This document shows, piece by piece, positions 2,767 to 58,803 of a stretch of DNA of 61,132 bases. Each line of letters opens with the position of its first letter. The stretch's first letter is position 1. Origin of the DNA: Candidatus Beckwithbacteria bacterium (GTDB lineage: Bacteria > Patescibacteriota > Microgenomatia > UBA1400 > UBA1449); the NCBI GenBank assembly GCA_012798485.1, contig JAAZND010000102.1, positions 1-61,132 of the forward strand, read 5' to 3'. Both the position numbers and the translations under genes were made by a program. Below the pieces are notes generated by a model. It searched no databases, was not told the DNA's origin, and saw only the letters and a program-made list of their open reading frames with translations.

Positions 2767-2964
2767 TTATTTTTTAATTTTAGTAAAAAAGCTAAAATCA
2801 AATTTTTTAAAAATTTTGATTATTCCATACCATAAAATTAACAAAATTGGCGTTCCAGGCAGTAGAAACAAAATAAACAAAATTAAAATCCTATACCATG
2901 GTCCTTTAAAAAAATAACGATATATTTTTTCAATCGAATAAAAAAGGATATTCCTATTCTTCAT
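2767..2964 (-). CDS. Hypothetical small membrane protein (65 aa)
   Basis: ATG at 2964 (track ORF starts at TTG 2970). One strongly hydrophobic segment, ILILFILFLLPGTPILLILWYGII. It fills the gap between a GT-C gene and a GT4 gene. No family recognised. Confidence 0.3.
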   Translation of the reverse strand: MKNRNILFYSIEKIYRYFFKGPWYRILILFILFLLPGTPILLILWYGIIKIFKKFDFSFFTKIKK

Positions 2965-4441
2965 ATGCAAAAAGTCTTTTGTAATTTACTAAATATTTTA
3001 AAACCAAATCGCCTTGAAAATGTTTCTCCTCAACCACTTCATAACCATAATTATTGACTAACTTCTCTTCCGTATGATTGTCTGGTTCAAAAATTGGTTG
3101 ACTATATTTGATTAACCAAATTTTATTCTCCAGTTTATTTTGCTCAATTTCTTTGTAATCTATCAACTGATGTTTGTCTCTGTCATAATACCAAAAAGGC
3201 CGAGAAACTTCACTTAGGATTATTACTTGAGAAGAAACATCTCTTTGCTTGATAAACTCGACTAAACTGCGCCAGTCTTCGCGATGAAAAACAGGATTAA
3301 AAAGATAAGTAAAGCTGCAATAAGCGCTAATTACTAAAAAAATAATATAAATTCCTTCCATTTTTTTAACACTAAAATCTTTAAGGCAATAAATCAAAAG
3401 CAAGTAAAAAGCTGGGGCAAGATATAAAAAGCGAAAATAAGTAAAAACAGATACTTTAAGAGAAACAATTATTCCTAGCAAAACTGGAATTACAAGCCAA
3501 GCCAGTAAAAAGAAAAAATAAAAAGTGTCGTTGCGAGTATCGCTTTGGAAAGACGTGATAATCTTATTCTTTATTGTTTTAATTATGAGAAAACCGAAAA
3601 GCAAAAATGGAATCGAAAGTAAAAGCAAAGTCCAAAGATTAAAATCGAGAGGTAAGCGGCCAATCAAAATTTTTGTCGGAATCAAAGCCAATTGGCGTAA
3701 TGAAAAAGTGCTCAAGTTTTGCCAAACAGCTAAACTGCCAGCAGTATTTTGTCCAATTTGCAGTTGACTAAAAAGAATTGATAAAAGCAAAATGATTGAT
3801 AAAAGAGGTAAAAATATAATTTTTAATTTATTAGATAATTCTTTTTTATCTTGATAAGAAAATAAACATAATAGTAATAACTGAGTTGGCCAAATAAACC
3901 AAGCTACATAATGAGACCAAAACATTAGTGAAGTCGCAAAAAAATATTTTAATGCATGAACAATTAGCAACCTGTTCTTTAAAATCATAATTTGCAAAAA
4001 TTCATACATTGACCAAGTACTAAAAAAAACAGCCAAGCTGTAAGGACGAGCTTCTTGGGAATAAAAAATTAACAATGGTGCAAGAGAAACAAGAAGTATT
4101 CCAAAATAAATTAAATCTACATTTTTATGTTTAGCTAAGATAAAATTTAAAATTTTGTAACTGAAAAAAACCACCCCCACTCCAGCCAAAACCGAAGGCA
4201 AACGCAAAACTATCTCATTATCACCAAAAAATTTAACAAAAACAAAAGTCAAAATATGCGATAATGGCGGATTGAAATCAGCCTTGAGATATTCAAACAC
4301 TAAATTTTTGAAAGAATATGTTTGTATCGCCCAAGCTTGAATCGCTTCATCTAGCCATAAAGATTGATTAAGAGCAATAAGTCGAATTAAAAAGGCAAAA
4401 ATTAGAATAGAGATAATAATTAAATTATTTTGTAATCTCAT
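2954..4441 (-). CDS. GT-C fold membrane glycosyltransferase (ArnT/PMT, GT39/GT83-like)
   Basis: Multi-TM ORF with an N-terminal loop motif SLWLDEA and a soluble C-terminal domain. Track start 4477 is TTG; the first ATG is at 4441 (MRLQNNLII...). Confidence 0.65.
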   Translation of the reverse strand: MRLQNNLIIISILIFAFLIRLIALNQSLWLDEAIQAWAIQTYSFKNLVFEYLKADFNPPLSHILTFVFVKFFGDNEIVLRLPSVLAGVGVVFFSYKILNFILAKHKNVDLIYFGILLVSLAPLLIFYSQEARPYSLAVFFSTWSMYEFLQIMILKNRLLIVHALKYFFATSLMFWSHYVAWFIWPTQLLLLCLFSYQDKKELSNKLKIIFLPLLSIILLLSILFSQLQIGQNTAGSLAVWQNLSTFSLRQLALIPTKILIGRLPLDFNLWTLLLLSIPFLLFGFLIIKTIKNKIITSFQSDTRNDTFYFFFLLAWLVIPVLLGIIVSLKVSVFTYFRFLYLAPAFYLLLIYCLKDFSVKKMEGIYIIFLVISAYCSFTYLFNPVFHREDWRSLVEFIKQRDVSSQVIILSEVSRPFWYYDRDKHQLIDYKEIEQNKLENKIWLIKYSQPIFEPDNHTEEKLVNNYGYEVVEEKHFQGDLVLKYLVNYKRLFAYEE

Positions 4442-4728
4442 TACAGTTTTATTATAATGGAAAATAAAAGATTTCAATAGTTCTCACTTTAATTTAGTTA
4501 TTTATAATTTAAAATTTCTACTGTAAGATGTCATTGCAATATATTAACGATTTTGATATGTTTAAATCCATGAAAACAACCCATATTCTTCAAATAAAAA
4601 TGCTTTATTCTAATTTTTTTACATTATTTCAAAATTCAGAAAAATTACTTTTCCTAAAAATAAATTTTCAACCTAAGGAGGAGCTTTAACTGTAAATAGT
4701 AAAAAATATTTACTTAAAGAAAAATCAT

Positions 4729-5508
4729 ATGAAAGTTATTATTCTTTGCGGTGGTCAAGGAACTAGGTTAAAAGAAGAAACAGAATTTAAACCAAAACCG
4801 ATGGTTTATGTCGGCAATAAACCTATTTTATGGCATATCATGAAAATTTATTCTCATTTTGGCTTTAACGAGTTTATTTTAGCTCTAGGTTATAAAGCAG
4901 ATTATATAAAAAATTTTTTCTTAAATCAGAAAGCTCTTACTTCAGATTTTACTTTACACACTAATAATTTTAAAACTCAATATCATATGGAAAATCGGGA
5001 AGATGTTGATAATTTTAAAATTACTTTTGTTGATACTGGTCTAGAAACCTTACCTGGAGAAAGAATTTTAAGATGTAAAAAATATATTCCCAAAGAAGAT
5101 AAACTTTTTATGGTGACTTACGGTGATGCTGTGACAGATTTAAATATTAAAAGCTTATTAAAATTTTATAAAAAACAAAAAACAATTGGAGTAATTACTG
5201 GAGTTCATCCAAGATCAAAATATGGCGTAGTAATAGTAGATTCAAATAATAAAGTCAAAAACTTTTCTGAAAAACCAATTTTAAAAGATTGGGTTAATGC
5301 TGGTTTTATGATATTTAATAAAAAAGTTTTTGATTATATAAAAAGAGAAGAAAGTGAACACCCTGCTCTGCAAAGATTGTCAAAGGAAAAACAATTATCT
5401 TTTTATAAACATGATGGTTTTTGGGCTTGTATGGACACTCATAAAGAATTTATGGATTTAAATGCCTGGTGGAAAGAAAAACAACCACCTTGGAAAATTT
5501 GGAAATAA
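4729..5508 (+). CDS. rfbF: Glucose-1-phosphate cytidylyltransferase
   Basis: 259 aa with end-to-end resemblance to RfbF/DdhA: MKVIILCGGQGTRL, KPKPMV, GNKPILWHIMK, GFWACMDT, and a PPWKIW C-terminus. Confidence 0.9.
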   Translation: MKVIILCGGQGTRLKEETEFKPKPMVYVGNKPILWHIMKIYSHFGFNEFILALGYKADYIKNFFLNQKALTSDFTLHTNNFKTQYHMENREDVDNFKITFVDTGLETLPGERILRCKKYIPKEDKLFMVTYGDAVTDLNIKSLLKFYKKQKTIGVITGVHPRSKYGVVIVDSNNKVKNFSEKPILKDWVNAGFMIFNKKVFDYIKREESEHPALQRLSKEKQLSFYKHDGFWACMDTHKEFMDLNAWWKEKQPPWKIWK

Positions 5509-5512
5509 GCTT

Positions 5513-6589
5513 ATGAATATTTATCATGGTAAAAACGTTTTAGTCACAGGAGGAACCGGTTTTGTCGGCTCTCATCTCGTTGAAGAACTTATTAAACTTG
5601 GAGCACATGTTGTCACTACTTATGAATATATTGATCCTAAATCTTATTTTATTACCAAAGGACTTGATAAAAATACAGTCATGGCTAAAGTAGATATTAG
5701 AAATTTTGATGCCGTCTTTGATCTTGTCACTAAACTTAATACTGAATTTATTTTTCATCTGGCTGCTCAGGCCATTGTTGAAACTGCTTATTACAATCCT
5801 CGCTGGACACTGGAATCAAATATTAATGGCACAATTAATATTGTGGAAAGCGGGAGACTCTTTCCCAAAGTAAAAGCTATTATCGTAGCTTCATCAGACA
5901 AAGCTTATGGAAAACTATGTAAAAAAATGTATATGGAAACGGATGCTTTGTGTGGCGATCATCCTTATGATGTCTCAAAATCTGCCACTGATCTTATTGC
6001 TCATAGCTATTTCGTCACTTATGGATTGCCAGTTGTCACAACTAGATTTGGCAATATCTATGGCGAGGGTGATTTAAATATGTCAAGGATTATTCCTGGT
6101 ATTATGAATACAATAATTAACAAAAATGTTTTGGAATTAAGAAGTAATGGAAAATTTGTAAGAGATTATTTATATGTAAAAGATGTCGTAGCAGGATATC
6201 TACTCCTTGCTGAAAAAATAGAAGAAGCAAAAGGTGAAGCCTATAATTTTGGGTCAGAAGAAAATTTATCAGTCATAGATTTAATTAAAGAAATCGAAAA
6301 AGCTTTAAATTTAAAAATTCCTTATAAAATTTTAAACACTGCTAAAAATGAAATTCCTAATCAAGCTTTGGACTGTAAAAAAATCAAGGCTTTGGGCTGG
6401 AAACAAAAACAAATGATAAAAGATACCATGCAATCAATTTTGTTATGGTATAAATCATACTTAAAAGGAGAAATTTCTTTCCCAATAAAAAATAATATAA
6501 ATCAACCAACGGAAAAAGAAGATAAAATAGTAAAAACCCAATTTACCATGTCTTCACCAAAAATTATTTATCTTGCTCCCAGACAATAA
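5513..6589 (+). CDS. rfbG: Extended-SDR sugar-nucleotide 4,6-dehydratase, probably CDP-glucose 4,6-dehydratase
   Basis: Rossmann motif TGGTGFVGSH, SSDKAYG, and the YDVSK catalytic Y-x3-K. ATG lies 5 nt after the rfbF stop. The track start at 5462 overlaps rfbF and was rejected. The substrate call rests mainly on position next to rfbF. Confidence 0.65.
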   Translation: MNIYHGKNVLVTGGTGFVGSHLVEELIKLGAHVVTTYEYIDPKSYFITKGLDKNTVMAKVDIRNFDAVFDLVTKLNTEFIFHLAAQAIVETAYYNPRWTLESNINGTINIVESGRLFPKVKAIIVASSDKAYGKLCKKMYMETDALCGDHPYDVSKSATDLIAHSYFVTYGLPVVTTRFGNIYGEGDLNMSRIIPGIMNTIINKNVLELRSNGKFVRDYLYVKDVVAGYLLLAEKIEEAKGEAYNFGSEENLSVIDLIKEIEKALNLKIPYKILNTAKNEIPNQALDCKKIKALGWKQKQMIKDTMQSILLWYKSYLKGEISFPIKNNINQPTEKEDKIVKTQFTMSSPKIIYLAPRQ

Positions 6590-6629
6590 AAATTGTTTTC
6601 TAATTTAGTGATTCTTCAATTTCTTTCAT

Positions 6630-8372
6630 TTATTCTTTACTTAAAAATGGAAACATTTCATTGATTGGCAAAGACATCATTTTTCCATTTTCATCTTTTC
6701 TCGATGAGACAGTCAAAATATCCTGCCAATATGGACAAACAATCTCGCAAATTACAGTTTCTTTAAGTTCTAAAATATCTTTAATTTTTTTTAAATCTTG
6801 AGTTTTATTGATTTTAAAATATTTTATTCCATAAGCTTTGGCAATTTTTTGAGTTTCTGGAATATAAACTCCAGATTTTAAGCCTTCACCAATCAATCTT
6901 TGATTAAAGAAATTTTTTTGCGTGATACGAATTGCAAGATATCCTTGGTTGTTAATCACAAAAATTTTTGCCGGAATTTTATGATGAAAAATTGAAGCCA
7001 ACTCATGAATATTCATCTGAAAAGAACCGTCTCCAGTAATACAAATAATATTATTCTTTGGGCTAGCTGCCCACACTCCCAAAATAGCAGGCAAGTTATA
7101 ACCCATAGTTAAAGTTGCTCCAGGGATGATAAATCTCTGATTTTTTTTGATTTTTAATGTTTGGGTTGTAATATAAGCTGTCACACCAGCATCTGTAATA
7201 ATATGATCTCCTTTTTTGGAAAACTGAGAAATGGCATTAATAGCATGATACATATTGACCAGCTTCTTTTGGGGTTTCGGCAAAAATAAACTATATTTCT
7301 TTTTTATAATTTGACACTTCTTAAGCCACTCTTGTTTATTTTGAATTGATTTAGCATGGACTAAAATTTTTTCTAAAAAATATTTAGCATCAGATAAAAT
7401 CAGTTTATCTATTTTGATAGTATTCTTACTGTGTTCTAATGGATCGACATCAATTACTATTTTTTTGGCTTTTGGCGCCCATTTATCATATTCATGTCCG
7501 GTAAAAGGGACTGCTAATCTAGTGCCAACAGCTAAAATTAAATCAGAATCCTGAATAATAATATTTCCTGCTCTATCTCCTTTTGTTCCTCCATGACCAA
7601 TATAATTGGGATGATCATATTCCAAAAGATCAATTCCCATATCTGGCGTCACTACTGGAATTTTAGTTTTTTCAACTAACTTTCTAAAAATTTCTACAGC
7701 GTTAGCTAATCTAACTCCTCCTCCAGCAATAATAATCGGTTTTTTGGCTTTTTTAAGTAAAGTAAATACTTCCTCAATCTTTTTTTGACTTGCTTGTGGT
7801 TTATTGTTTTGTTTAATTATCTTGCTTTTTAATTTTTTCTCATCAATTAAAGCTCCTGCCACATCTGAGGGAATATCAAGCCATACCGGCCCAGGACGAT
7901 CAGACAACATTTCACAATAAGCTTTATCAAGTTCCTGTTTAATATCTTCCGGGTTTTCCACTACAGCAGCATATTTAGTCAAAGATTTAACGACGGGAAT
8001 AATATTTACTTCCTGCACTCCAAATTGCCTTAATGGTTGAGGTTTAAGACTGGAAGACATTTGTGACTTCTTGGTTTGTGTAGAAATAAAAATTACTGAA
8101 ATAGAATTTTGCCATGCTTCCAAAAGCCCAGTAATCGCATTGGTTGAACCAGGACCAGAAGTGACAATTACCGCCCCAGGAACATTTTTGGTTTTAGCAT
8201 AAGCCTCAGCTGCCAAAGCACATGCTTGTTCATGATGACTACAAATATATTTAATTTTACCGTGAGCAATAGTAGCATCATTTAAAAACATCGCTCCACC
8301 ACCAGAAAGAGTAAAAATAGTTTCTGTACCATGACTGTAAATGTATTCGATAAGATAATCTGCTACTCTCAT
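6630..8372 (-). CDS. Thiamine-diphosphate-dependent enzyme of the acetolactate-synthase/YerE-like superfamily
   Basis: N-terminal Pyr domain (HEQACALAAEAYAK, VTSGPGSTN) and C-terminal ThDP motif GDGSFQMN...NNQGY. ATG 8372 (MRVADYLIEYI) lies 1 nt after the upstream stop. Track start 8477 would overlap the upstream gene by 104 nt. Confidence 0.8.
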   Translation of the reverse strand: MRVADYLIEYIYSHGTETIFTLSGGGAMFLNDATIAHGKIKYICSHHEQACALAAEAYAKTKNVPGAVIVTSGPGSTNAITGLLEAWQNSISVIFISTQTKKSQMSSSLKPQPLRQFGVQEVNIIPVVKSLTKYAAVVENPEDIKQELDKAYCEMLSDRPGPVWLDIPSDVAGALIDEKKLKSKIIKQNNKPQASQKKIEEVFTLLKKAKKPIIIAGGGVRLANAVEIFRKLVEKTKIPVVTPDMGIDLLEYDHPNYIGHGGTKGDRAGNIIIQDSDLILAVGTRLAVPFTGHEYDKWAPKAKKIVIDVDPLEHSKNTIKIDKLILSDAKYFLEKILVHAKSIQNKQEWLKKCQIIKKKYSLFLPKPQKKLVNMYHAINAISQFSKKGDHIITDAGVTAYITTQTLKIKKNQRFIIPGATLTMGYNLPAILGVWAASPKNNIICITGDGSFQMNIHELASIFHHKIPAKIFVINNQGYLAIRITQKNFFNQRLIGEGLKSGVYIPETQKIAKAYGIKYFKINKTQDLKKIKDILELKETVICEIVCPYWQDILTVSSRKDENGKMMSLPINEMFPFLSKE

Positions 8373-8373
8373 A

Positions 8374-9543
8374 TTAATTATTGATAATGGATAAAATTGC
8401 TTTGGCAACCACCGGAATTTGTTGAAGCGACATGCCGCCAAAATTAATTCTTCCATTTTGTAATAAATAAATACCATATTTAGTTTTTAACAAAGTAATC
8501 TGGGCTGATGTTAAATCAAGCAAACTGAAAAAGCCTTTTTGCTCTAAAACATAACTAAATCGACCTTTTGTCAGCTTATTAAATAACTCTCTTCTTTTTT
8601 TAAGATTTTTACTCATTTGTGCAAGTGATTGAAGCCATTCTTTTTTATAAGTTTTATTGGTTAGAATTTTTTTAACAATTGATTCACCAAAGGCTGGAGG
8701 AGTGGAATTACTGATTCTAAATAAATAATTAAGACAAGAATCAATGGCAAATCTCTCTTTTTCACTTTCTGCCAACACTATTAACAAACTTGTGCGATGC
8801 TGATACAAAGTCATATTTTTGGAAAAAGAAAAATTGATAGCCATTTTTATTTTATTTTCGAGTAAATATCTTCCGGAAAAACAATCGGTCTCAAAATCAT
8901 CACCAAGCCCAATGTAGGCTGAATCAAGCAAAATGGTATTATTATATTTTTTAAACAATTTAGTCAATTCTACCCATTCTGCTTCACTGGGATTAACACA
9001 AGTTGGATTATGTGTTGGTCCCCCTTGAAATAAAATAAAAGCATTGGGATTTTCTCTCATTGCTTTTTTTAAAGCGGTAAAATTAAATTTTTTATTTTTA
9101 TTAAGTTGAGGGAAATGGATAATTTTAAAACCAAAATTTTTAAAAATTTTATTATGATTATCCCAAGTAGGGTCACTCAAAATAATAGTTGGTTTTTTAA
9201 AATTGAGAGCAATCAAATTTGCCCAAACATAAATCCCGTTGGTTCCTCCGGTCACTCCCTGCTTTGCTAAAAGATGATTATATTTTTTATATAATTTGTC
9301 GCCTAGAACCAATTTAGTTGATTCTTCGATAAATTCCAAATCTCCTTTGATTGGCAAATAATTAAAATTGCTGCGATCTAATTCTGATACTACTTTAGCT
9401 ACAGTTGGAATCACAAAAGTTTTACCATCATTATCAAGATAAATACCAATGCTGGCATTAATTTTATCCGTTCTTTTGTCATCTTGATATTCATCATTTA
9501 AACTAAAAATTGTATCTGGTTCAATGACTTTGTATTTGCTCAT
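8374..9543 (-). CDS. Subgroup I-alpha aspartate/aromatic-amino-acid aminotransferase (AspC/TyrB-like)
   Basis: 389 aa with AspC landmarks in order: KINASIGIYLDNDGKT, DPTWDNH, HNPT, SFSKNMTLYQHR (Schiff-base Lys), STPPAFG, GRINFGG. ATGA overlap with the upstream gene. Confidence 0.8.
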   Translation of the reverse strand: MSKYKVIEPDTIFSLNDEYQDDKRTDKINASIGIYLDNDGKTFVIPTVAKVVSELDRSNFNYLPIKGDLEFIEESTKLVLGDKLYKKYNHLLAKQGVTGGTNGIYVWANLIALNFKKPTIILSDPTWDNHNKIFKNFGFKIIHFPQLNKNKKFNFTALKKAMRENPNAFILFQGGPTHNPTCVNPSEAEWVELTKLFKKYNNTILLDSAYIGLGDDFETDCFSGRYLLENKIKMAINFSFSKNMTLYQHRTSLLIVLAESEKERFAIDSCLNYLFRISNSTPPAFGESIVKKILTNKTYKKEWLQSLAQMSKNLKKRRELFNKLTKGRFSYVLEQKGFFSLLDLTSAQITLLKTKYGIYLLQNGRINFGGMSLQQIPVVAKAILSIINN

Positions 9544-11312
9544 TTAATTAAACTGACCAAAACATCGCAAACAAAATCGATATCTTTTTCAGTTAGATTA
9601 GCGGCTGACGGAAGATTGAAACCATTTTTTTCTACCTCACTGGCTACTGGATTTTTTAATAATTTTAAATTTTTATAAACGGGAAAACGACTCATTCTAG
9701 GGAAAGTCTCTCGTCCATGAATATTATATTCTCGCATTTTGGCAATCAATTCATTTCTGGAAATTTTCTTAGATTTGAGTAAAACTCCAGGATAACAGTA
9801 ATTGGACCGAGTGCCTTTTGGCTCAACAATTAATTCTAATTCTTTGATATCTTTTAATCTTTCATAATACCAAGAGAAAATTTTTCTTTTAATCTGAACT
9901 AATTCTTCTATTCTTTCCACTTGGGCGCGAGCCAAAGCAGCTGTCACATTCGCCATTTGATATTCGTACCCCAGAATATCACACCAAAAATTGGCCAATC
10001 GATTTGTTCTTCCCATATTACTTAACAGAATTGCCTGTTCATACATCTCTTTACTATTGGTTAAAAACATACCGCCTTCTCCAGAAGCAGCAATTTTTGC
10101 TCCATGGAAAGAAATACAACCGACATCACCAAAAGAACCAGCTTTTTTATTTTTATAAAGTGTGCCAAGAGCAGGAGCTGAATCTTCCACAATTTTTAAA
10201 TTATATTTTTTGGCAATTTTTTTGATTGCATCCCAATCAGCTGATTGGCCAAATGAATCTACCACCATAATCCCTTTAGTCTTTTTAGTAATCGCTTTTT
10301 CGATCGCCTTAGGATCAATACACCAAGTTTTGGGATCAATATCAACAAAAATTGGAGTTGCGCCGGTATAATTAATAACATAAGCTGTGGCTACCCAACT
10401 AAAATCGGTACAGATCACTTCATCACCTTTTTTAAAGCCACAAGTTAGACAAGCCAAATGCAAAGAATGAGTGGCACAAAAACCGGCAAGAGCATATTTG
10501 ACTCCTATATAATCTGCAATAGTTTTTTCTAAAGCCTTGATATCTTTATCAAACGTTTCATAAAAACCATGCTTCACGCCGTCAATCACATAATCAATTT
10601 CTTTTTTAGTAATCGATGGACCAGCAAAACTAATTTTTTTGTCTGATCTTTTAAATTGGGGTTTAATGTTTGTTTGTTTGAGTTTCATATAGATTTCATA
10701 TTTGTTTATAACTTTTTTATAACCTTTTGGAGCAGGAATCCATTCAGGAAATCCTTTCTCGTTAACTTGAATTAAGGGAACTTTTTTAAATTCCACAAAT
10801 CCAAGCTTTTGATACAAATTAAGAGCTTTTTCATTATTAGAAAATGTTTGCAAGGTATAATTTTTTAAACCCAATTCTTTTTTTCCCCAGGCTAACATAT
10901 AAGAAATAGCATTGCCCATAATCCCAGGATATTTTTCCACTCCTCGAACAATGTTATCGATTTCACAAGTCAAATTTTTAAAATCAAAACGGAATAAACC
11001 AATATGTCCAATAAATTCTCCTTTGACTTTAATTATAAAAAGCAAACGATCAGGAGTGTTAATAAGTCTTTCTTCAAGCCATTTTTTAGTTCCGGGAATA
11101 GTCACTTTAAATTGAGAAGGAAACCAGATTTCATGCTTTTTGCGCCAGTTGGCTAAAAGCTTGACAATTTGAGGTTTATTTATGCAGTCTTGAGTAATAA
11201 AAAGCAGTTCATATTTTTGCTTTTCAAAAACACCATCTATTTTTATTTCACCAAAAGTATTATTTTTAAATTTAGAAATCTGTTGAATTATTTGTTTTCT
11301 ATTCGGCTTCAT
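9540..11312 (-). CDS. Bifunctional fusion: N-terminal GNAT N-acetyltransferase (RimL/PseH-like) plus C-terminal DegT/DnrJ/EryC1 sugar aminotransferase
   Basis: 590 aa. Residues about 40-200 are GNAT (NWRKKH, GHIGLF, NLYQKLGFVEF). Residues about 215-590 are the DegT fold (ISFHGAKIAASGEGG with the Lys retained). Confidence 0.75.
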   Translation of the reverse strand: MKPNRKQIIQQISKFKNNTFGEIKIDGVFEKQKYELLFITQDCINKPQIVKLLANWRKKHEIWFPSQFKVTIPGTKKWLEERLINTPDRLLFIIKVKGEFIGHIGLFRFDFKNLTCEIDNIVRGVEKYPGIMGNAISYMLAWGKKELGLKNYTLQTFSNNEKALNLYQKLGFVEFKKVPLIQVNEKGFPEWIPAPKGYKKVINKYEIYMKLKQTNIKPQFKRSDKKISFAGPSITKKEIDYVIDGVKHGFYETFDKDIKALEKTIADYIGVKYALAGFCATHSLHLACLTCGFKKGDEVICTDFSWVATAYVINYTGATPIFVDIDPKTWCIDPKAIEKAITKKTKGIMVVDSFGQSADWDAIKKIAKKYNLKIVEDSAPALGTLYKNKKAGSFGDVGCISFHGAKIAASGEGGMFLTNSKEMYEQAILLSNMGRTNRLANFWCDILGYEYQMANVTAALARAQVERIEELVQIKRKIFSWYYERLKDIKELELIVEPKGTRSNYCYPGVLLKSKKISRNELIAKMREYNIHGRETFPRMSRFPVYKNLKLLKNPVASEVEKNGFNLPSAANLTEKDIDFVCDVLVSLIK

Positions 11313-11331
11313 AGTTTAGAGTAAATATAAC

Positions 11332-12660
11332 ATGAAAAAAAAGATAAGCAAATACTGTCTAAAATATTTTTCAAAATACTCTCATATACATCTCAGTTTT
11401 TATGGTAAACTAAAAAAGTTTATGCAAAATAAAAAGTATATTCCAGTTTCAGGCAAGGTTTTTAATCAAGAAGAAATTGATAATGCAATAGAAGCAGCCA
11501 AAGATTGTTGGTGGACTGAAGGCAAATTTAGTAAAACTTTTGAAAACGATTTTAAAAAATTTTTAGGAGTGAAGTATGTTTCTTTAGTCAATTCTGGATC
11601 AAGTGCTAACCTTCTTGCTCTTGCCTGCCTTACTTCTGAAATTTTTGGCGATAAAAAACTAAAAGCAGGAGATGAATTTATCACTACTCCTGTTGCTTTT
11701 CCTACAACTGTTAATCCGGGAATTCAATATGGACTAAAACCGGTTTTTATCGATGCTTGTGTGAATACTTTAAATATTGATGTCAAACAAATCGAAAAAG
11801 CGATTAGTAAAAAAACCAGATTGATTATGCTTGCCCACACTCTTGGTTTTTCTTACAATCTAAAAGAAATTTTAAAATTGGTCAAAAAATATAAGCTCTG
11901 GTTTATTGAAGATTGTTGTGATGCACTTGGATCAAAATATAATGACAAATTCTTAGGCACTTTTGGTCACTTGGCTACTTTCAGTTTTTATCCTGCTCAT
12001 CATATCACTATGGGCGAAGGCGGAGCTGTGATTACTAATGACCCTCTTATTCATAAATCTATACGTCAATTTAGAGATTGGGGCAGAGATTGCTGGTGTG
12101 GTACTGGCGAAGATAATACCTGTAAAAATAGATTCAAATGGAAACTAGGAGAATTACCTTTGGGCTATGATCACAAATATATTTATTCCCAAATTGGTTA
12201 TAATTTGAAACTTACAGACTTTCAGGCAGCAATTGGGGTTGCCCAGCTCAAAAAATTACCCAAATTTATCAAACAAAGAAAAACAAATTATAAAATTTTA
12301 TATGACTTTTTTAAGCAATATGAAAAATATTTTATTCTGATGAAAGAAGAAAAAAATGCCGATAATTCTTACTTTGGGTTCCCAATTATAGTAAAAGATA
12401 ACGCTCCTTTTACGAGAAATGAACTCACTGAATATTTAGAAAACAATCAAATTGCCACCAGAAATATTTTTGCTGGCAACTTACTTCGTCACCCAGCTTA
12501 CTTGAAATTAAGAAAAAATTTTAGAATAATAGGAAGTATGGAAAACGCTGACTTGATTATGAACAATGCTTTTTGGCTTGGAGTCTGGCCTGGAATAAAA
12601 AAACAAGATTACAATTTTATTTTAAAAACATTACAAAAATTTTTAAAAAAATATGAATAA
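11332..12660 (+). CDS. rfbH: PMP-dependent sugar 3-dehydrase (CDP-4-keto-6-deoxy-D-glucose 3-dehydrase, E1 type)
   Basis: DegT-family fold with His in place of the Schiff-base Lys (FSFYPAHHITMGEGG) and Cys motifs EDCCDALG and RDWGRDCWCGTGEDNTC, as in the [2Fe-2S] enzyme E1/DdhC. The start could also be ATG 11422. The long form keeps an RfbH-like N-terminal segment. Confidence 0.8.
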   Translation: MKKKISKYCLKYFSKYSHIHLSFYGKLKKFMQNKKYIPVSGKVFNQEEIDNAIEAAKDCWWTEGKFSKTFENDFKKFLGVKYVSLVNSGSSANLLALACLTSEIFGDKKLKAGDEFITTPVAFPTTVNPGIQYGLKPVFIDACVNTLNIDVKQIEKAISKKTRLIMLAHTLGFSYNLKEILKLVKKYKLWFIEDCCDALGSKYNDKFLGTFGHLATFSFYPAHHITMGEGGAVITNDPLIHKSIRQFRDWGRDCWCGTGEDNTCKNRFKWKLGELPLGYDHKYIYSQIGYNLKLTDFQAAIGVAQLKKLPKFIKQRKTNYKILYDFFKQYEKYFILMKEEKNADNSYFGFPIIVKDNAPFTRNELTEYLENNQIATRNIFAGNLLRHPAYLKLRKNFRIIGSMENADLIMNNAFWLGVWPGIKKQDYNFILKTLQKFLKKYE

Positions 12661-13591
12661 TAAACTAATTTCAGTTATTGTCGCTTGTTACAACGAAGAA
12701 GAAAATATAAAAGAAATTTATCAGCGCATTATCAAAACTTTTAAAGAAAATCCTCAGTATGATTATGAAATTATTTATGTTGACAACAATTCTATAGACA
12801 CTTCTCGAAAAATTATTCAAGATTTATGTAAAAAAGATAAAAAAGTAAAAGCCATTTATATGAGTAGAAATTTTGGTTCGCCTCAACCCAGTTTTTTAGC
12901 TGGACTTGAAAAATCTAAAGGGGATGCTGCTATCTTACTTCACGGCGATATCCAGGATCCTCCAGAATTAATCCCCCAATTTGCCAAACTGTGGGAAAAA
13001 GGCAATGATGTCGTTTATGGAGTTAGAACCAAAAGAAAAGGCTACAATTTTATCTGGAATTTTTATTATCATGCTTTTTACTGGATATTACAAAAAATCT
13101 CATATATCAAAATGCCTCTAGATGCTGGCGATTTTTCTTTAATGGACAGAAAAGTGATTAGAGAATTATTAAAATTAGATGAATATGATTATTATATTAG
13201 ATGCCTCAGAGCATATGTAGGTTTCAAACAAATTGGTTATGAATACGAAAGAGATCCAAGACTAAAAGGCAAATCAAATGAAAACTTATTATCAAGTTTA
13301 TGGTGGGCTAAAACGATTATTGCCAATTTTTCCTTTAAACCACTCGAGTATATTTCTTTTGTTGCACTTGCCGTTACTTTTTTCTCCTTCATTTTTATAA
13401 TCATAAATATTATTTTGTATTTTTTAAACCCTTCTTCTCCAAAAGGAATTCCAACTATAGTAATCCTTATTTCATTTCTTGGAGGTATACAACTACTCAG
13501 CCTTTCTATTATTGCTGAATACTTAGCCAAAATCTTTTTAGAAATTAAGAAAAGACCAAAATATATTATTGAAGAAACTATTAATCTCTAG
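12653..13591 (+). CDS. GT2 polyprenyl-phosphate glycosyltransferase (DPM1/ArnC/GtrB-like)
   Basis: VIVACYNEEENI, VDNNSIDTS and HGDIQDPPE, plus two C-terminal TM helices. ATG overlaps the rfbH stop. Confidence 0.75.
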   Translation: MNNKLISVIVACYNEEENIKEIYQRIIKTFKENPQYDYEIIYVDNNSIDTSRKIIQDLCKKDKKVKAIYMSRNFGSPQPSFLAGLEKSKGDAAILLHGDIQDPPELIPQFAKLWEKGNDVVYGVRTKRKGYNFIWNFYYHAFYWILQKISYIKMPLDAGDFSLMDRKVIRELLKLDEYDYYIRCLRAYVGFKQIGYEYERDPRLKGKSNENLLSSLWWAKTIIANFSFKPLEYISFVALAVTFFSFIFIIINIILYFLNPSSPKGIPTIVILISFLGGIQLLSLSIIAEYLAKIFLEIKKRPKYIIEETINL

Positions 13592-13593
13592 AT

Positions 13594-15153
13594 TTATTTA
13601 TAAAAAAGTATAATATCTTTTTTATTCTCTAAATCACTTTCAATAATACTTTCCTTATCCAGACCATTTTTGATTGCTATTTCTTTCCAATATTCATATG
13701 ATTTTTCCCAATAGACAGTAAAGTCTATAAACAGATAATCTGGATTAAATGCTTTAACTGCTTCTTCATTTGGAGTCTGCCAATCATTAGTAGCTTTTTT
13801 ATATAATTTTGCATTCACTGGAAGCGATGCAGAATAAAGAATATTGCTATCCTTAAAATTAATATTTGTCTGTTCTAGTTTTCTCGTAGCTCTAGAGGTA
13901 ATAAAATCCTTAAAAGAATATGCTGCTTGGATTGATTTTTGAGAAATTAGTAAATTAAAAATTACAGCTTTAATATATACAAATATTAATATCATTAAGA
14001 ATGTTAAATATAAAGCCTTATATTTAAACACTTTTTGTTTTAAGAATAAATATAAAGAAATATCAAATACATATGAGTAAAAAAATAAAGAGATTGGAAG
14101 TATTGGTATTAAATAAGCAGTAGTGCGTATTGGTCCCACTTTTAAAGTTAACCATAAAATATAAGAAATACTATATGTAGAAATTAGTGAAATGAATATA
14201 CTATTAGTATCTTTTAATTTTTTAAAGAAATTTATAATTAAAACTAAAAAAGGCGAAACTACTGTTAATAATAGTAATGGATTAATAAGATATTCTGCAA
14301 ACCACGAATTTATATTATCTCTCATGCTAGCAGAGGTCATACTAAACATTTCTCTTTGTCTTGCTATAAATAAGGAGGTTTGAATAAAAATATAAGGATG
14401 TATTAAAAAAGTTAAAAATAAAAATATTATTCCTGAAGTTAGATATACATAGATTAATTTCTGTAAATTCTGTCTCACATTCTCTTTTAGAGTAAAAATA
14501 AATCCTAAAAATAATGGAAAAATAATAAAAATATGCGGTTGTTTACAAAGAAATGCTAGTCCTCCAAAAATATTAGCTAGAATAATATTTTTTAATAATT
14601 TGGGGTTTTGCAAATAATAAAATAAATAATTAAAACAAATAAGAGAAAATAATAAACCTAAAATGTCAGGTTTAATATGAAAAGTGTAATGTAAAAAAGG
14701 AGTAAATAAACAAAAAAGAGTTAGATAAATTATTTTACTAATCTGATATTTTAAGATTTTGTTTAAGAGATTAAAAGCACTAATTAAACAACCTAAAGCA
14801 ACTATAAAGTTAAAAAGCTTAGCCGTTAAAGCAAAAATTTCTGCATTTTCAAAAGAGATCTTTAATAATATTGAAATAGCACTAAAAATCCAAAATAAAA
14901 TGCTATTAAATGGGAATCCATAATACGCAGTATGATATGGAATATTTTGATTATAATAAGAGTCTGGTTTAGATGTATCTGATAACTGTAAAATACTACT
15001 TAAAATTGAGCCGCTATCTATGTGTTCAGCAAAAACCACATTAAGATTTTGATTATTTTGAAAACATGCTGGTAAAATAAACCAACAAAAACCTATTATA
15101 TATAATATTAAAACCCAATATTTATTTATTAATTCGATTATGTTATTTTTCAT
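13594..15153 (-). CDS. Polytopic membrane protein with GT-C-like architecture
   Basis: 519 aa with many hydrophobic segments followed by a soluble C-terminal domain of about 100 aa. It converges on the polyprenyl-P GT2 gene with a 2-nt gap. No named motif recognised. Confidence 0.45.
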   Translation of the reverse strand: MKNNIIELINKYWVLILYIIGFCWFILPACFQNNQNLNVVFAEHIDSGSILSSILQLSDTSKPDSYYNQNIPYHTAYYGFPFNSILFWIFSAISILLKISFENAEIFALTAKLFNFIVALGCLISAFNLLNKILKYQISKIIYLTLFCLFTPFLHYTFHIKPDILGLLFSLICFNYLFYYLQNPKLLKNIILANIFGGLAFLCKQPHIFIIFPLFLGFIFTLKENVRQNLQKLIYVYLTSGIIFLFLTFLIHPYIFIQTSLFIARQREMFSMTSASMRDNINSWFAEYLINPLLLLTVVSPFLVLIINFFKKLKDTNSIFISLISTYSISYILWLTLKVGPIRTTAYLIPILPISLFFYSYVFDISLYLFLKQKVFKYKALYLTFLMILIFVYIKAVIFNLLISQKSIQAAYSFKDFITSRATRKLEQTNINFKDSNILYSASLPVNAKLYKKATNDWQTPNEEAVKAFNPDYLFIDFTVYWEKSYEYWKEIAIKNGLDKESIIESDLENKKDIILFYK

Positions 15154-15801: not shown

Positions 15802-16866
15802 TTATTTTTCCTTATTAAGGAATTTTCTTATTATTTTTCTAAATTTTGTATCTTTATAGTTTATTTTTTGAGATTTACTATCAAAATTTATCTTATTTAC
15901 CAAACTAATAATATCTTTATATTGAATCGAGTAAAGAGAATTTAATAACTTTAAATTTTTGGTATCTTTAATAAAGTTTAAAATAGTTTCATATCCCCAT
16001 TTTTGACGTATCTGATCATCTGTTTTAAGAGCTATTTTCCCCAAAAAATAGGGAATAGTTTCTCTTGTTGGTTTTCCAAAAACTTTAAAATCTTGACTAA
16101 ATACTTTGATAAATAAATTAATATCCATTTTTAAAAAATTATCTAAAACAAATGGTAGCTCTAAATTCTGACGTAAAATCGACAGATTACTATGATTATC
16201 TATTTGGCTCCCATTGATCATTTGTCGATATTTAACTAATGGCTTTTGATAAATATAAATTTTATTTTTTAAAAGTGTTCTGACATGGAAATCATAGTCT
16301 TGAGTTTGAAGTAATGCTGGATTAAAAAAACCAATTTGTTTTAAAATAGATTTTCTAATAATTTCTCCAGGAGCTGGTAATCTATTCCCATAGATAAACA
16401 TTTCTCTTATAAGCTGAAATCTATTTGTATTTTTAAATTTCAAAATTTTTTGTAATTATTTATCTTTCAAAAGATGATTATTTTCATCTATTCCTTCTAA
16501 CTGAAAAAATAATGCATTATATTGTTTGTTTTTTTCTAAATAATTAATTCCTTCCTGTAAATAAGTTGGACAAACTTCATCGTCTGAAGCTATAAAAACA
16601 ATATATTCCCCTACACTATTTTTTATTCCATCATTAAAACCAATTGATGGTCCCATATTATAATGATGTTCAATTATTTTAATTCGAGAATCTTTATAAG
16701 ATTTAATAATATTTAAAGTATTGTCTAAAGATCTATCGTCAATAATTATCAACTCAAAGTCAGTAAAAGTTTGAGCTAAAATACTATTAAGAAATTTAGC
16801 CACATATTTTTCATGAAGATAGCTTGGAGAAATGATAGATACTTTCGGTTTATTCTTAGAATTCAT
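15802..16866 (-). pseudogene. GT2 glycosyltransferase interrupted by one in-frame TAA (16456-16458)
   Basis: ORFs 16456-16866 (GT2 N-domain: VSIISPSYLHEKYV, IIIDDRSLDNT, ASDDE) and 15802-16443 (GT2 C-terminal part) are in the same frame. They are separated only by TAA plus four sense codons (LQKI). Confidence 0.6.
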
Positions 16867-17956: not shown

Positions 17957-18937
17957 TTATAATAAATCTTTTAGGTATTTTTTGTAATAGAGCTTTAAGA
18001 TTTTCTTATTTTTTACTATATATCTAATTATTGGATATTTTTCTAGACGACTATATTGGGTCCATATTTTTAGATCTTTATTTGGAAATTTGATGAAATT
18101 AGTTTTGGGATTAAAAATATCAGAGTAACGATAATTTTTGTGAATATAATATAAAATCCATGCCATTTCATTCTTATAGTTGTTCTTAAAATATTGAAAG
18201 TCTGTAGGCATTATTTCTGAATAATAGTTATTATATTTGTAATTTAACATTATATTAATTAAATAAATTACAATATTATTAAATTTCTCTTGTTCTTTTC
18301 TGTCAACTGATGACCAAACCCCTTTATGGTTATAGCGATAAACTGACAAGGGTTTATCATAATAATAACAATTTCCTTTTGATAATAAATAATGATACTG
18401 AAAAATATCTCCCGGAGGTAAATTTTTTATATTACGGAAAACTCTGGCTGAAGTATGAGTATAAATTTGATTTATCAAACTAAATTTATTATTAAGAACA
18501 TTATTTCTTTTGATCAATAATTCTTTTCTATTATCTGGATATAAGATATAAGAATTATGAGCGAACATAATACAATCTGAATTCTGGTCAAGCGAATCAA
18601 CTGCTTTTTGTAATTTATATGCATCAATCCAGTAATCATCTCCTTCACAAAGAGCTATATATTTACCTTTCGCACTTGGAAGTAAAAATGTTTTTAATAT
18701 CCCAGTTTTAATTTTACTAAGTTGATTTTCTTTTTGGATAACTAATTTAATTATATTGGGAAATTTTTTTTGATATTCTTTTAGTATTTCTGGGGTTTTA
18801 TCTGTAGAAGCATCATCGTGAATCAAAATTTCATAATCAAAATTTGTTTTTTGCATCAAAAAAGAATCTATTGTTTGAGATATATACTTTTCATGATTAT
18901 AAGCAAGACATAATATTGATATTTTAGGAAACTTCAT
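17957..18937 (-). CDS. GT2 glycosyltransferase
   Basis: ISILCLAYNHEKYISQTIDSFLMQ, ILIHDDASTDKT, CEGDDYW. Confidence 0.75.
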   Translation of the reverse strand: MKFPKISILCLAYNHEKYISQTIDSFLMQKTNFDYEILIHDDASTDKTPEILKEYQKKFPNIIKLVIQKENQLSKIKTGILKTFLLPSAKGKYIALCEGDDYWIDAYKLQKAVDSLDQNSDCIMFAHNSYILYPDNRKELLIKRNNVLNNKFSLINQIYTHTSARVFRNIKNLPPGDIFQYHYLLSKGNCYYYDKPLSVYRYNHKGVWSSVDRKEQEKFNNIVIYLINIMLNYKYNNYYSEIMPTDFQYFKNNYKNEMAWILYYIHKNYRYSDIFNPKTNFIKFPNKDLKIWTQYSRLEKYPIIRYIVKNKKILKLYYKKYLKDLL

Positions 18938-19943
18938 TTTTTAAAATTATTGGATTTATCTGTTTAATACCTATAGTTCCAGTATTATATAATAAAAATT
19001 TACTATTCACTTTTTTTTGGTTAAGCATATTAATTATTGCCTTAGGAAAATTAACTCCAGCCAAATGAGAAAATGGATATTGACCACCAAAACGGCAGTT
19101 TAAATCAATTACATAATACTTATTATTATTATAAATGATATCAACATCTAAGTTGGCAACATGTTTTAACTTGTTTGATAAGGTTTTAGCTATAATTGAT
19201 ATACTTTTGTTTTTAATGATTATGGCGCTATCTGTTTCTCCAGCTCTCATAGATAATTTTTTTTTGGAAACACTAGTTAGATAATTAGAATTTAAATCAT
19301 TAAAAATATCAACTCCATATTCTGAACCATTAATTTTTTCTTGAATAATAATACTTTTTTCAATATCTTGACTTGATTCATATTTGATGTGGTTTGAGGC
19401 AATTTCTTGTTTAATTTTATTAAATAAAATTATTAATTCATGATAATTATTTACCTGATAAGTAGACAATGACCCAGTTCCCCATCTTGGTTTGATAATT
19501 AATGGATAATTTATCAATCCTCTTTTAATTTTTTTTTGACTTTCCAATATTGATAATGAAGATTCTGGTGTATTAATTTTAATCGATTTTAAAAACTTAT
19601 ACGTATTCCATTTGTCATTACAGATGTTAATAACCTTGCTATCAGAAACAACGAGTTTAATATTGTGTTTGTCAAATTTTTCCTTATTTACTGACAATTT
19701 CCATAAATCAAAATCAAACAATGGAATTATTGCTTTGATCTTATTTTTTAAACAATAATCAATTAAAAATTGAATATATTGCCTATGATTAATTAATGGT
19801 GTTATAACAGCTTTATCTGCACATTGAAGAGCATCTGACCATAATGAATTAGAAGCATGCACTTCACCATTTCCATTTAGGGCTTCTTTAAAATAATTAA
19901 TTAAATAAGATCTTCTTCCCGCAGAAGTAATTAAGATATTCAT
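18924..19943 (-). CDS. ATP-grasp ligase
   Basis: ILITSAGRRSYL pre-ATP-grasp N-terminus, PLIIKPRWGTGS, IIQEKINGSEYGVD, DLNCRFGG. Confidence 0.65.
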   Translation of the reverse strand: MNILITSAGRRSYLINYFKEALNGNGEVHASNSLWSDALQCADKAVITPLINHRQYIQFLIDYCLKNKIKAIIPLFDFDLWKLSVNKEKFDKHNIKLVVSDSKVINICNDKWNTYKFLKSIKINTPESSLSILESQKKIKRGLINYPLIIKPRWGTGSLSTYQVNNYHELIILFNKIKQEIASNHIKYESSQDIEKSIIIQEKINGSEYGVDIFNDLNSNYLTSVSKKKLSMRAGETDSAIIIKNKSISIIAKTLSNKLKHVANLDVDIIYNNNKYYVIDLNCRFGGQYPFSHLAGVNFPKAIINMLNQKKVNSKFLLYNTGTIGIKQINPIILKNEVS

Positions 19944-23365: not shown

Positions 23366-23449
23366 ATTAAACTGCTGCAAATAACACAGTTTCTTTTAGA
23401 TGAATTGTTGCATGTTTTAAGTAATATTTATAATATTTATAAAGATCTT

Positions 23450-25057: not shown

Positions 25058-25063
25058 TTTATA

Positions 25064-36421: not shown

Positions 36422-36426
36422 AAAAT

Positions 36427-53896: not shown

Positions 53897-53913
53897 TTAT
53901 TTTCCAAACTTTT

Positions 53914-58802: not shown

Positions 58803-58803
58803 A

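Follow-up and report, generated by a model that had tools for sequence, protein, structure and literature searches.

The 61,132-nucleotide (nt) contig of an uncultivated Candidatus Beckwithbacteria bacterium (Candidate Phyla Radiation (CPR)/Patescibacteria; approximately 28% G+C), referred to in its entire length as the window, contains at positions 4729-13591 a gene cassette whose most likely product is a 3,6-dideoxy sugar carrying a carbon branch of the kind known from yersiniose and erwiniose. We consider the core of this assignment, a YerE-type pathway to a branched 3,6-dideoxyhexose, secure and highly probable. With middling confidence we hold the more specific reading that the cassette is an acyl-branched 3,6-dideoxyhexose pathway of the YerE type that operates without a dedicated E3 reductase and in which two modules have been swapped. 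Compared to the described pathways, an aminotransferase appears to occupy the donor slot that is filled by an aldolase there, and a fusion of a GNAT and a DegT domain appears to stand in place of the YerF-type ketoreductase, the branch probably being finished by amination and N-acetylation instead of reduction. The six genes named by an initial annotation of the window, which had been made from the sequence alone, were all recovered at their positions and are given below together with the glycosyltransferase gene that follows them.

4729-5508, plus strand: rfbF-like glucose-1-phosphate cytidylyltransferase (RfbF/DdhA type), which would make cytidine diphosphate (CDP)-glucose (Pfam NTP_transferase; TIGR02623)
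Open reading frame (ORF) 5462-6589, probable start ATG 5513, plus strand: rfbG-like CDP-glucose 4,6-dehydratase of the short-chain dehydrogenase/reductase (SDR) type (RfbG/DdhB type; Pfam GDP_Man_Dehyd, Epimerase; TIGR02622)
6630-8372, minus strand: YerE-like thiamine diphosphate (ThDP)-dependent carboligase, predicted C-4 branching enzyme (Pfam TPP_enzyme_N/M/C; best PDB match 8RPH)
8374-9543, minus strand: AspC-type (class I-alpha) aminotransferase from a clade specific to CPR, which is predicted to supply the donor 2-oxo acid (Pfam Aminotran_1_2; PRK09257)
9540-11312, minus strand: fusion of a GNAT N-acetyltransferase (residues ~1-215) and a DegT-family sugar aminotransferase (~225-590) (Pfam Acetyltransf_3/1, DegT_DnrJ_EryC1)
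11332-12660 (start maybe Met31, 11422), plus strand: E1/RfbH-type pyridoxamine 5'-phosphate (PMP)/[2Fe-2S] CDP-4-keto-6-deoxyglucose 3-dehydrase (NF011936; PDB 3BCX)
12653-13591, plus strand: GT2 polyprenyl-phosphate glycosyltransferase of the GtrB/ArnC/PgfS type (Pfam Glycos_transf_2; PgfS 231 bits, ArnC 120 bits)

The scheme to which we relate the cassette was set out by Steitz et al. (2022), who proposed that YerE-like enzymes ligate an acyl group derived from a 2-oxo acid to C-4 of CDP-4-keto-3,6-dideoxyglucose and backed this proposal with surrogate ketone and aldehyde acceptors (PMC9306805). Neighboring genes make the donor, as exemplified by the aldolase and acetaldehyde dehydrogenase ErwI/ErwJ that lead to 4-hydroxy-2-oxopentanoate, and the reductase YerF or ErwF then reduces the branch ketone (PMC9306805). 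The same authors list "reductases, transaminases, or oxygenases" as enzymes that can further modify acetyl branches and mention that donors can alternatively be obtained biocatalytically by transaminating amino acids; both ErwE and MyGE take 4-hydroxy-2-oxobutanoate in vitro (PMC9306805). JanthE of Janthinobacterium sp. HH01 is a further YerE-like, ketone-accepting enzyme that uses short to long 2-oxo-acid donors, as described in a 2025 review which also cites an in-silico study of more than 200 YerE-like clusters (PMC12247030). The initial annotation had found no characterized pathway matching this gene combination. That statement has to be revised: because the kinship of the ThDP enzyme and the synteny of rfbF, rfbG and E1 fit the published acyl-branched 3,6-dideoxyhexose scheme (YerE/YerF and ErwE/ErwF/ErwI/ErwJ; PMC9306805), the cassette is not unprecedented and belongs to this recently described family. 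What is new about it was judged against the published YerE/YerF and Erw schemes, with the survey of more than 200 clusters represented by its citation in the review.

Families were assigned by Pfam domains, by bit scores of NCBIfam and equivalog models relative to their curated cut-offs, and by sequence matches to PDB entries. The comparison set consisted of 48 related loci, mostly from CPR, whose ORFs were labelled by BLAST comparison to a set of references and spot-checked with Pfam; 8 loci came from genome contigs scanned with a single protein, and 27 more from metagenome contigs for which the aligned AspC-like clade served as query. Since the same synteny recurs over dozens of independent loci, the arrangement of the cassette is not considered a product of chance.

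The rfbF-like protein scored 263 bits with TIGR02623 (cut-off 300), compared to 98 bits for the next-best nucleotidyltransferase model, and its orthologues in the related loci are 62-78% identical. Coordinates and junction sequence agree with the initial annotation that the rfbG-like dehydratase gene is its direct neighbor, the probable start of the latter (ATG 5513) lying 4 nt past the rfbF stop. The rfbG-like protein reached 205 bits with TIGR02622, under the cut-off of 278, and its orthologues (48-70% identity) are in every case paired with rfbF.

The ORF starting at 11332 exceeded the equivalog cut-off of the RfbH model NF011936 by a wide range (630.6 versus 423 bits). Comparison with solved structures placed it with the E1 enzymes, the Yersinia E1 structure (3BCX) scoring 461 bits, more than twice the 205 bits of ColD, and ordinary DegT aminotransferases at most 160 bits. 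A His is found at the position of the Schiff-base Lys in "YPAHHITMGEGG"; the segment FYPAHHITMGEGG aligns to FYPAHHITMGEGG of E1, and this His is invariant in 15/15 distinct orthologues. Residue-for-residue alignment revealed that EDCCDALG and RDCWCGTGEDNTC retain the [2Fe-2S] ligands corresponding to C193, C251, C253 and C261 of Yersinia E1, and CDA(L/V)G and C-x-C-x7-C are likewise invariant among the 15 distinct orthologues. With catalytic His and cluster Cys present and the RfbH model passed, the protein is assigned as a true E1, as the initial annotation had proposed. A ColD-type 3-dehydratase was ruled out by the retained cluster Cys and the more than twofold higher E1 score; because the Fe-S ligands are kept, a ColD-type mechanism is unlikely. 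The start of the 442-amino-acid (aa) E1 ORF is only 19 nt from that of the fusion, and the true start may be Met31 (11422), in line with the 409-419 aa of its orthologues. Two related loci (L027, 4225-6918, and L041, 472-3165, both minus strand) harbor an E1 orthologue of 897 aa in which the DegT fold is interrupted by a LAGLIDADG-type intein (Pfam Intein_splicing, LAGLIDADG_3). An E1-E3 fusion was ruled out for these two proteins, as the additional sequence is the intein, and we know of no report of an intein in a sugar 3-dehydrase.

A dedicated E3 (DdhD/AscD), the flavin/[2Fe-2S] reductase, is not encoded within the 61-kb window. Among the window ORFs of at least 100 aa none matched Pfam Fer2, FAD_binding_6 or NAD_binding_1, and none of 1064 ORFs, taken from the window and from all 48 related loci, had the plant-type ferredoxin motif Cx4Cx2C...C; for the window this agrees with the initial annotation. 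The weight that had been laid on this absence was not borne out, since an E3-like ORF is missing from 48/48 related loci as well, including the yersiniose-like Sporomusa cluster described below. The lack of E3 is therefore common to the group and does not set the window apart. SpnQ provides a precedent, an E1-type PMP/[2Fe-2S] dehydrase that runs on general ferredoxin or flavodoxin reductase pairs (PMC8987622). The same loci bear on the explanation that the cassette serves an ordinary 3,6-dideoxyhexose pathway, with E3 and a 4-reductase located elsewhere in the genome and the minus-strand genes unrelated to it. Even though only 61 kb of the genome are visible and a GDP-fucose-synthase-like (Fcl-like) SDR is present at 33946-34884, this explanation is contradicted by the synteny of the ThDP gene, with or without the aminotransferase gene, with rfbF, rfbG and E1: this synteny recurs in about 40 independent loci that span several phyla and are all devoid of E3, and we regard the explanation as scarcely credible. 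The view of the initial annotation that the cassette is not a standard abequose, paratose or tyvelose route is thus retained.

The three minus-strand genes between rfbG and E1 are translationally coupled as noted previously: the stop of the fusion and the start of the AspC-like gene overlap in ATGA (9540-9543, minus strand), and the AspC-like stop (8374-8376) is separated by a gap of 1 nt from the ThDP ATG (8372). The database protein P0001 (615 aa) for the ThDP gene opens at 8477, 104 nt within the AspC-like gene; ATG 8372 is more likely the better start, homologues being 589-601 aa long. The ThDP gene is convergent with rfbG, with 40 nt between the stops, and E1 is about 3 kb distant. Among PDB entries the enzyme matched JanthE best (8RPH, 333 bits, full length), followed by plant acetohydroxyacid synthase (AHAS; 224), PpYerE (5AHK; 199) and glyoxylate carboligase (about 185). 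We identified 8RPH as JanthE by its citation in the JanthE engineering paper and by the CDG motif that is reported for JanthE and present in its sequence. The GDGS ThDP motif and the catalytic Glu in HHEQ of the window enzyme align with JanthE. A housekeeping acetolactate synthase was ruled out by a score of 362 bits against the large-subunit cut-off of 538, by the synteny with sugar genes and by the absence of a visible small-subunit gene.

Relatives of the ThDP enzyme adjoin rfbF/rfbG/E1 genes in approximately 40 of the 48 loci, which derive from CPR, Sporomusa, Melainabacteria and Micrarchaeota. In Sporomusa acidovorans a homologue with 47% identity is found in the order NTP-transferase, dehydratase, DegT protein of E1 size, ThDP enzyme and SDR, again without E3, an array that we classify as a yersiniose-like cluster. 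This context underpins the assignment of the ThDP enzyme as a probable YerE-like carboligase, with ligation to a ketone as its predicted reaction. Among the alternatives raised by the initial annotation, the C-branched (yersiniose-like) sugar is therefore strongly supported, by the best PDB match to JanthE as well as by the synteny in about 40 loci. The ThDP subclades parallel the module next to them, with one clade accompanied by a DmpG/DmpF aldolase pair, another by a dehydroquinate synthase (DHQS)-like gene and a short SDR, and the clade of the window as the third. The members of the window's subclade (at least 62% identity; L003, L005, L007, L008, L009, L013, L018 and L048) all lie beside rfbF/rfbG/E1 and have aminotransferase and/or reductase genes as neighbors, never an aldolase.

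Four loci (L009, L024, L026 and L037) carry two YerE-like paralogues of different subclades each, every paralogue with its own candidate donor or tailoring module beside it, which suggests two different branched sugars per organism. In L046 (11804-13545, minus strand) a split transketolase-like pair (Transketolase_N; Transket_pyr/Transketolase_C) replaces the YerE-like enzyme of a fusion locus; it adjoins E1, the GNAT-DegT fusion, rfbG and rfbF, and an RmlC-like epimerase and an SDR are present there too.

The AspC-like protein scored 298 bits with PRK09257 and matched AspC/TyrB structures in the PDB at about 1e-50; as its score is under the PRK09257 cut-off of 377, it represents a divergent clade. 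Its segments SFSKN, NGRINF and FRISNSTPP align with AspC/TyrB, and the equivalents of Lys258 (which binds pyridoxal 5'-phosphate, PLP), Arg292 (distal carboxylate) and Arg386 (alpha-carboxylate) are present in it and invariant in 46 members of the clade. The clade comprises about 70 clusters at 40-75% identity, the next matches being canonical AspC/TyrB proteins at about 30%. In at least 13 loci the AspC-like gene directly adjoins the ThDP gene, in every case within an rfbF/rfbG/E1 context. The two closest loci, L048 and L018, with AspC-like/ThDP identities to the window of 75/74% and 69/72%, respectively, have this gene pair abutting genes for aspartate-semialdehyde dehydrogenase (ASADH), homoserine dehydrogenase and aspartate kinase, and in four loci of the window's ThDP subclade the ThDP gene abuts these three genes. 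The simplest reading of this arrangement would be a route from aspartate to homoserine, which the aminotransferase would convert to 4-hydroxy-2-oxobutanoate for the ThDP enzyme. Since the Arg for the distal carboxylate is conserved, the donor could plausibly also be oxaloacetate formed from aspartate. The same slot is filled in L003, L005 and L008 by a class-I aminotransferase of a different family; that the L003/L005 proteins are orthologues of the AspC-like protein was rejected (BLAST E >1, separate family). A DmpG-type aldolase fused to a C-terminal MptE-like (6-hydroxymethylpterin diphosphokinase-like) domain, 586 aa in total, is encoded in L019 (1542-3302, plus strand) and L043 (6439-8199, plus strand).

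The consistent lack of E3 could also be taken to mean that the AspC-type enzyme serves E1, which would turn over in a ColD-style, PMP-consuming manner with the aminotransferase regenerating PMP or the amino donor. ColD indeed regenerates PMP from glutamate (PMC8987622), E3 is absent everywhere examined, and the AspC-like gene accompanies donor modules of every kind, aldolases included. However, E1 retains all Fe-S ligands that ColD is devoid of, and many E3-less loci are without any aminotransferase (L001, L009, L013, L016, L045 and L046). Moreover, the AspC-like gene is coupled to the ThDP gene and not to E1, and its identity to the window protein drops in step with the ThDP subclades. We regard such a role as very improbable and favor supply of the 2-oxo-acid donor as the function of the AspC-type enzyme.

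The GNAT-DegT fusion matched LegC/PseC models and, weakly, PseH, with all scores under the family cut-offs. Its DegT domain is closest to perosamine synthetase (3DR7, 232 bits) and retains the catalytic Lys, SFHGAKIAASGEGG being aligned with SFFGNKIITTGEGG of perosamine synthetase; the GNAT domain is nearest to amine N-acetyltransferases. The fusion recurs in about 30 clusters at 49-79% identity, and split GNAT and DegT versions as well as stand-alone DegT orthologues with up to 87% identity exist. E1 is present in all six sampled fusion loci; in five it directly neighbors the fusion, and in the locus of protein P0135 some 7.5 kb separate the two. All six also have a ThDP-dependent enzyme or donor module: L016, L045, L047 and the P0135 locus encode a YerE-like enzyme, L015 has an aldolase pair where its contig ends, and L046 has the split transketolase. 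The donor and ThDP genes of L047 and L027 have the DegT/GNAT genes interspersed among them. A reductase of the SDR300 type or similar to Sporomusa YerF is present in 17 of the 19 adequately long loci without DegT/GNAT, compared to 2/8 loci with DegT/GNAT and a third, ambiguous one (Fisher p = 0.002-0.011). From this reductase swap, the retained Lys and the likeness of the GNAT domain to amine N-acetyltransferases we infer that the DegT domain may aminate the 1'-ketone of the branch and the GNAT domain would N-acetylate the resulting amine.

The statement of the initial annotation that the window has no 4-reductase gene holds insofar as no orthologue of the branch reductases of the related loci is present: no SDR300-type or Sporomusa YerF-like orthologue was found in the window, the best identities being 24% and 34%, respectively, for SDRs at least 18 kb away. 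It is too strong with regard to reductases in general, as four extended SDR genes are located 18-46 kb off, distant from the cassette.

31843-32820: extended SDR
32951-33925: extended SDR
33946-34884: extended SDR, Fcl-like
59490-60425: extended SDR

Coupling of the three minus-strand genes also accommodates an explanation in which the ThDP and AspC-type enzymes turn an amino acid into an unusual acyl group, which the GNAT domain would load on a 4-amino-3,4,6-trideoxy sugar, corresponding to the N-acyl sugar among the alternatives of the initial annotation. Bacterial amino sugars frequently bear unusual N-acyl groups, and the operon ties aminotransferase, ThDP enzyme and GNAT domain together. 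The cassette, however, lacks a CoA ligase, acyl carrier protein or acyl-activating gene, orthologous ThDP/aminotransferase pairs occur in many loci without GNAT/DegT but with E1 and a reductase, and the nearest characterized relative of the ThDP enzyme is a ketone-accepting carboligase. This makes the explanation improbable in our assessment.

The pathway that we propose, for which the enzyme families of the first, second, fourth and sixth steps as well as the lack of E3 are assigned by sequence and synteny, would begin with formation of CDP-4-keto-6-deoxyglucose by the RfbF-like and RfbG-like enzymes. E1 would then strip the 3-hydroxyl group to give CDP-4-keto-3,6-dideoxyglucose, presumably with electrons from a general ferredoxin/flavodoxin system encoded elsewhere. 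As the third step, the AspC-type enzyme is predicted to convert an amino acid to the 2-oxo-acid donor, the best guess being L-homoserine to 4-hydroxy-2-oxobutanoate and the simplest alternative aspartate to oxaloacetate. The ThDP enzyme would decarboxylate this donor and transfer the acyl anion to C-4, resulting in a tertiary alcohol at C-4 and a branch with a 1'-ketone. Transamination of this ketone by the DegT domain of the fusion and acetylation of the amine by its GNAT domain would yield CDP-3,6-dideoxy-4-C-(1-acetamidoalkyl)hexose. Finally, GT2 would move the sugar to polyprenyl phosphate, and a membrane glycosyltransferase would attach it to a putative surface acceptor outside the cytoplasm. 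The predicted product, a 4-C-(1-acetamidoalkyl) sugar with a branch derived from homoserine, is put forward tentatively and is at best evenly balanced between right and wrong.

Several observations weigh against parts of this pathway. CDP is only the likely nucleotide of the cassette sugar because both the rfbF-like and the rfbG-like protein score under their equivalog cut-offs. PpYerE scores under plant AHAS against the window ThDP enzyme (199 versus 224 bits), so that its YerE-likeness rests on JanthE and synteny. Genes for aspartate kinase, ASADH and homoserine dehydrogenase were not found in the 61-kb window, and the donor is therefore proposed here by orthology only. In at least eight loci the AspC-like gene adjoins the ThDP gene despite the presence of a DmpG/DmpF aldolase pair; a role as donor supplier is thus not straightforward, and in these loci the AspC-like enzyme may supply a 2-oxo acid that the aldolase extends or do something not yet seen. 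The anticorrelation between DegT and reductase is not absolute, as L016/L017 and the P0135 locus have both, and we know of no DegT enzyme that aminates a side-chain ketone of this kind. In addition, the DegT domain most resembles the ring C-4 aminotransferases represented by perosamine synthetase, and direct formation of a 4-acetamido-3,4,6-trideoxyhexose therefore stays a serious rival.

According to this rival, two products are made, with the fusion acting at ring C-4 to give a forosamine-like 4-acetamido-3,4,6-trideoxyhexose and the ThDP and AspC-type enzymes separately producing a 4-C-acyl sugar, the branch ketone of which would be left unreduced or be reduced by a distant SDR. It agrees with C-4 aminotransferases (perosamine synthetase, 232 bits; LegC/PseC models) being the best structural relatives of the DegT domain, with E1 and the fusion being immediate neighbors in most fusion loci and with some loci holding the fusion plus an SDR300-type gene. 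The spinosyn enzymes offer a precedent, SpnR being a DegT 4-aminotransferase that acts after the 3-dehydrase SpnQ. Two products would, however, leave unexplained why loci with DegT/GNAT mostly lack the reductase and why every sampled fusion locus contains a ThDP enzyme or donor module. The coupling of the three minus-strand genes in one operon and the interleaving of DegT/GNAT with donor and ThDP genes in L047 and L027 also speak against separate routes. The 4-amino-3,4,6-trideoxy N-acyl sugar suggested by the initial annotation consequently fits the pattern across loci, in which DegT/GNAT swaps with the ketoreductase and always co-occurs with a ThDP enzyme, less well than amination of the branch; we consider the two-product explanation unlikely, even though it is still a live rival.

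Among the characterized systems, yersiniose A of Yersinia pseudotuberculosis (DdhA-D, YerE, YerF) shares the RfbF/RfbG/E1-type route and the acetolactate synthase-like ThDP enzyme that adds an acyl branch at C-4. In contrast to it, the window has neither E3 (DdhD) nor a YerF-type reductase beside the ThDP gene and instead contains the aminotransferase and the GNAT-DegT fusion; its donor is probably not pyruvate, and its ThDP enzyme is nearer to JanthE (8RPH/8RPJ) than to PpYerE. The ThDP motif of JanthE is CDG, that of the window enzyme the canonical GDG. Erwiniose biosynthesis in Pectobacterium atrosepticum (ErwE/ErwF/ErwI/ErwJ) follows the same modular logic in that an adjacent module makes a functionalized 2-oxo acid, and DmpG/DmpF-type pairs are found in many of the related CPR loci. 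The window differs by an aminotransferase instead of an aldolase as the candidate donor module, predicted amination and acetylation instead of reduction by ErwF, a CPR host and the polyprenyl-phosphate GT2. SpnQ/SpnR of spinosyn forosamine have in common with the cassette an E1-type dehydrase without dedicated E3, followed by a DegT aminotransferase and N-modification, but their sugar is thymidine diphosphate-linked, 2,6-dideoxy and unbranched, and its amine is N,N-dimethylated and not N-acetylated. The order of nucleotide-sugar aminotransferase and then GNAT is shared with PseC/PseH and LegC-type pairs; the window has both activities fused, tied to E1 and ThDP genes and presumably directed at another substrate. 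Its GT2 resembles those of the GtrB/ArnC/PgfS systems with their GT-C partners (GtrC, ArnT), whereas the donor would be a CDP-linked branched sugar and the GT-C partner is a guess from position.

Taken across the loci, a mix-and-match toolkit of CPR for C-branched 3,6-dideoxyhexoses may be envisaged, with the aminotransferase homoserine route, DmpG/DmpF or HpcH aldolases and DHQS-like enzymes as donor modules and ketoreductases or aminotransferase plus N-acetyltransferase as tailoring modules. The product of the window would then be a 3,6-dideoxy-4-C-(1-acetamido-3-hydroxypropyl)hexose, its branch derived from an amino acid, made without E3 and delivered to the surface on polyprenyl phosphate, a combination that we find possible but somewhat doubtful. 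From this locus and its relatives many CPR lineages would be predicted to carry on their surface C-branched 3,6-dideoxy sugars, which until now were associated with a small number of proteobacteria and mycobacteria, as parts of their O-antigens and lipooligosaccharides. CPR episymbionts rely on cell-surface contact with their hosts, and to our knowledge none of the surface glycans of CPR/Patescibacteria has been characterized chemically. If correct, the pathway would include an aminotransferase that naturally supplies a YerE-like enzyme with its 2-oxo-acid donor, a route which the literature has as a biocatalytic alternative only, as well as a DegT/GNAT unit that converts a branch ketone to an acetamido group, and 3,6-dideoxy-4-C-(1-acetamido-3-hydroxypropyl)hexose would represent a class of sugars undescribed in any organism. 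YerE-like enzymes are wanted as catalysts for chiral tertiary alcohols, for which the donor-specific subclades with their matched modules provide a ready panel. The consistent absence of E3 raises the question which electron donors serve E1-type dehydrases in minimal genomes.

Delivery of the sugar by a lipid carrier is suggested by the GT2 gene, which overlaps the E1 stop by 8 nt (12653-12660) and thus is translationally coupled to E1. In the PDB, GT2 matched GtrB (5EKP, 196 bits) and ArnC (94 bits) over residues 4-310 as well as DPMS (62 bits), and two hydrophobic helices can be read from the sequence within its C-terminal 90 residues. A GtrB/ArnC-type GT2 adjoins E1 in most related loci, followed by large polytopic membrane proteins, and the protein in the corresponding slot of L045 is a PMT_2 GT-C enzyme. 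Two membrane proteins flank the cassette in the window.

13594-15153, minus strand: 519-aa polytopic membrane protein that, judging by its position only, may be a GT-C-type transferase acting on the lipid-linked sugar
2954-4477, minus strand: 507-aa polytopic membrane protein upstream of rfbF, second candidate GT-C-type transferase (weak NCBIfam match)

The 519-aa protein had no match in Pfam, NCBIfam or PDB, and its single-sequence AlphaFold model (pLDDT 44) was not used. The 507-aa protein weakly matched the mannosyltransferase MT1671 (E 1.8e-5), had no PDB match and has one homologue, in L009. No homology was detected among the 519-aa, the 507-aa and the L045 PMT_2 proteins.

Nearly all ORFs of the window are assigned by Pfam to glycan biosynthesis and export, including glycosyltransferases, methyltransferases, sugar aminotransferases, two Wzm/Wzt ABC pairs and a Wzx-type flippase. 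The Wzm/Wzt-type exporter pairs (27514-29038 and 35603-37425, both plus strand) together with the flippase (30488-31747) indicate that glycans can be exported by several routes. A DegT aminotransferase and an FdtA-type 3,4-ketoisomerase with a GT1-like gene between them (22280-25462, minus strand) point to a separate 3-amino-3,6-dideoxyhexose route in the island. A second GtrB-like GT2 with C-terminal transmembrane helices is followed by an asparagine-synthase-like amidotransferase (52958-55818, plus strand), and a third GT2 is paired with a DUF2304 membrane protein (58452-59493, minus strand); with these units, sugars of the island may be routed over polyprenyl phosphate in more than one way. 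A GT2 and a methyltransferase gene enclose genes for a PylC-like ATP-grasp ligase, a PALP-family PLP enzyme and a GNAT protein (18924-21399, minus strand), which may decorate another sugar by ligation of an amino acid. Two adjacent ORFs of 136 and 213 aa (15802-16866, minus strand), the first of which corresponds to the N-terminal half of a GT2 domain, maybe represent a frameshifted or split glycosyltransferase gene.

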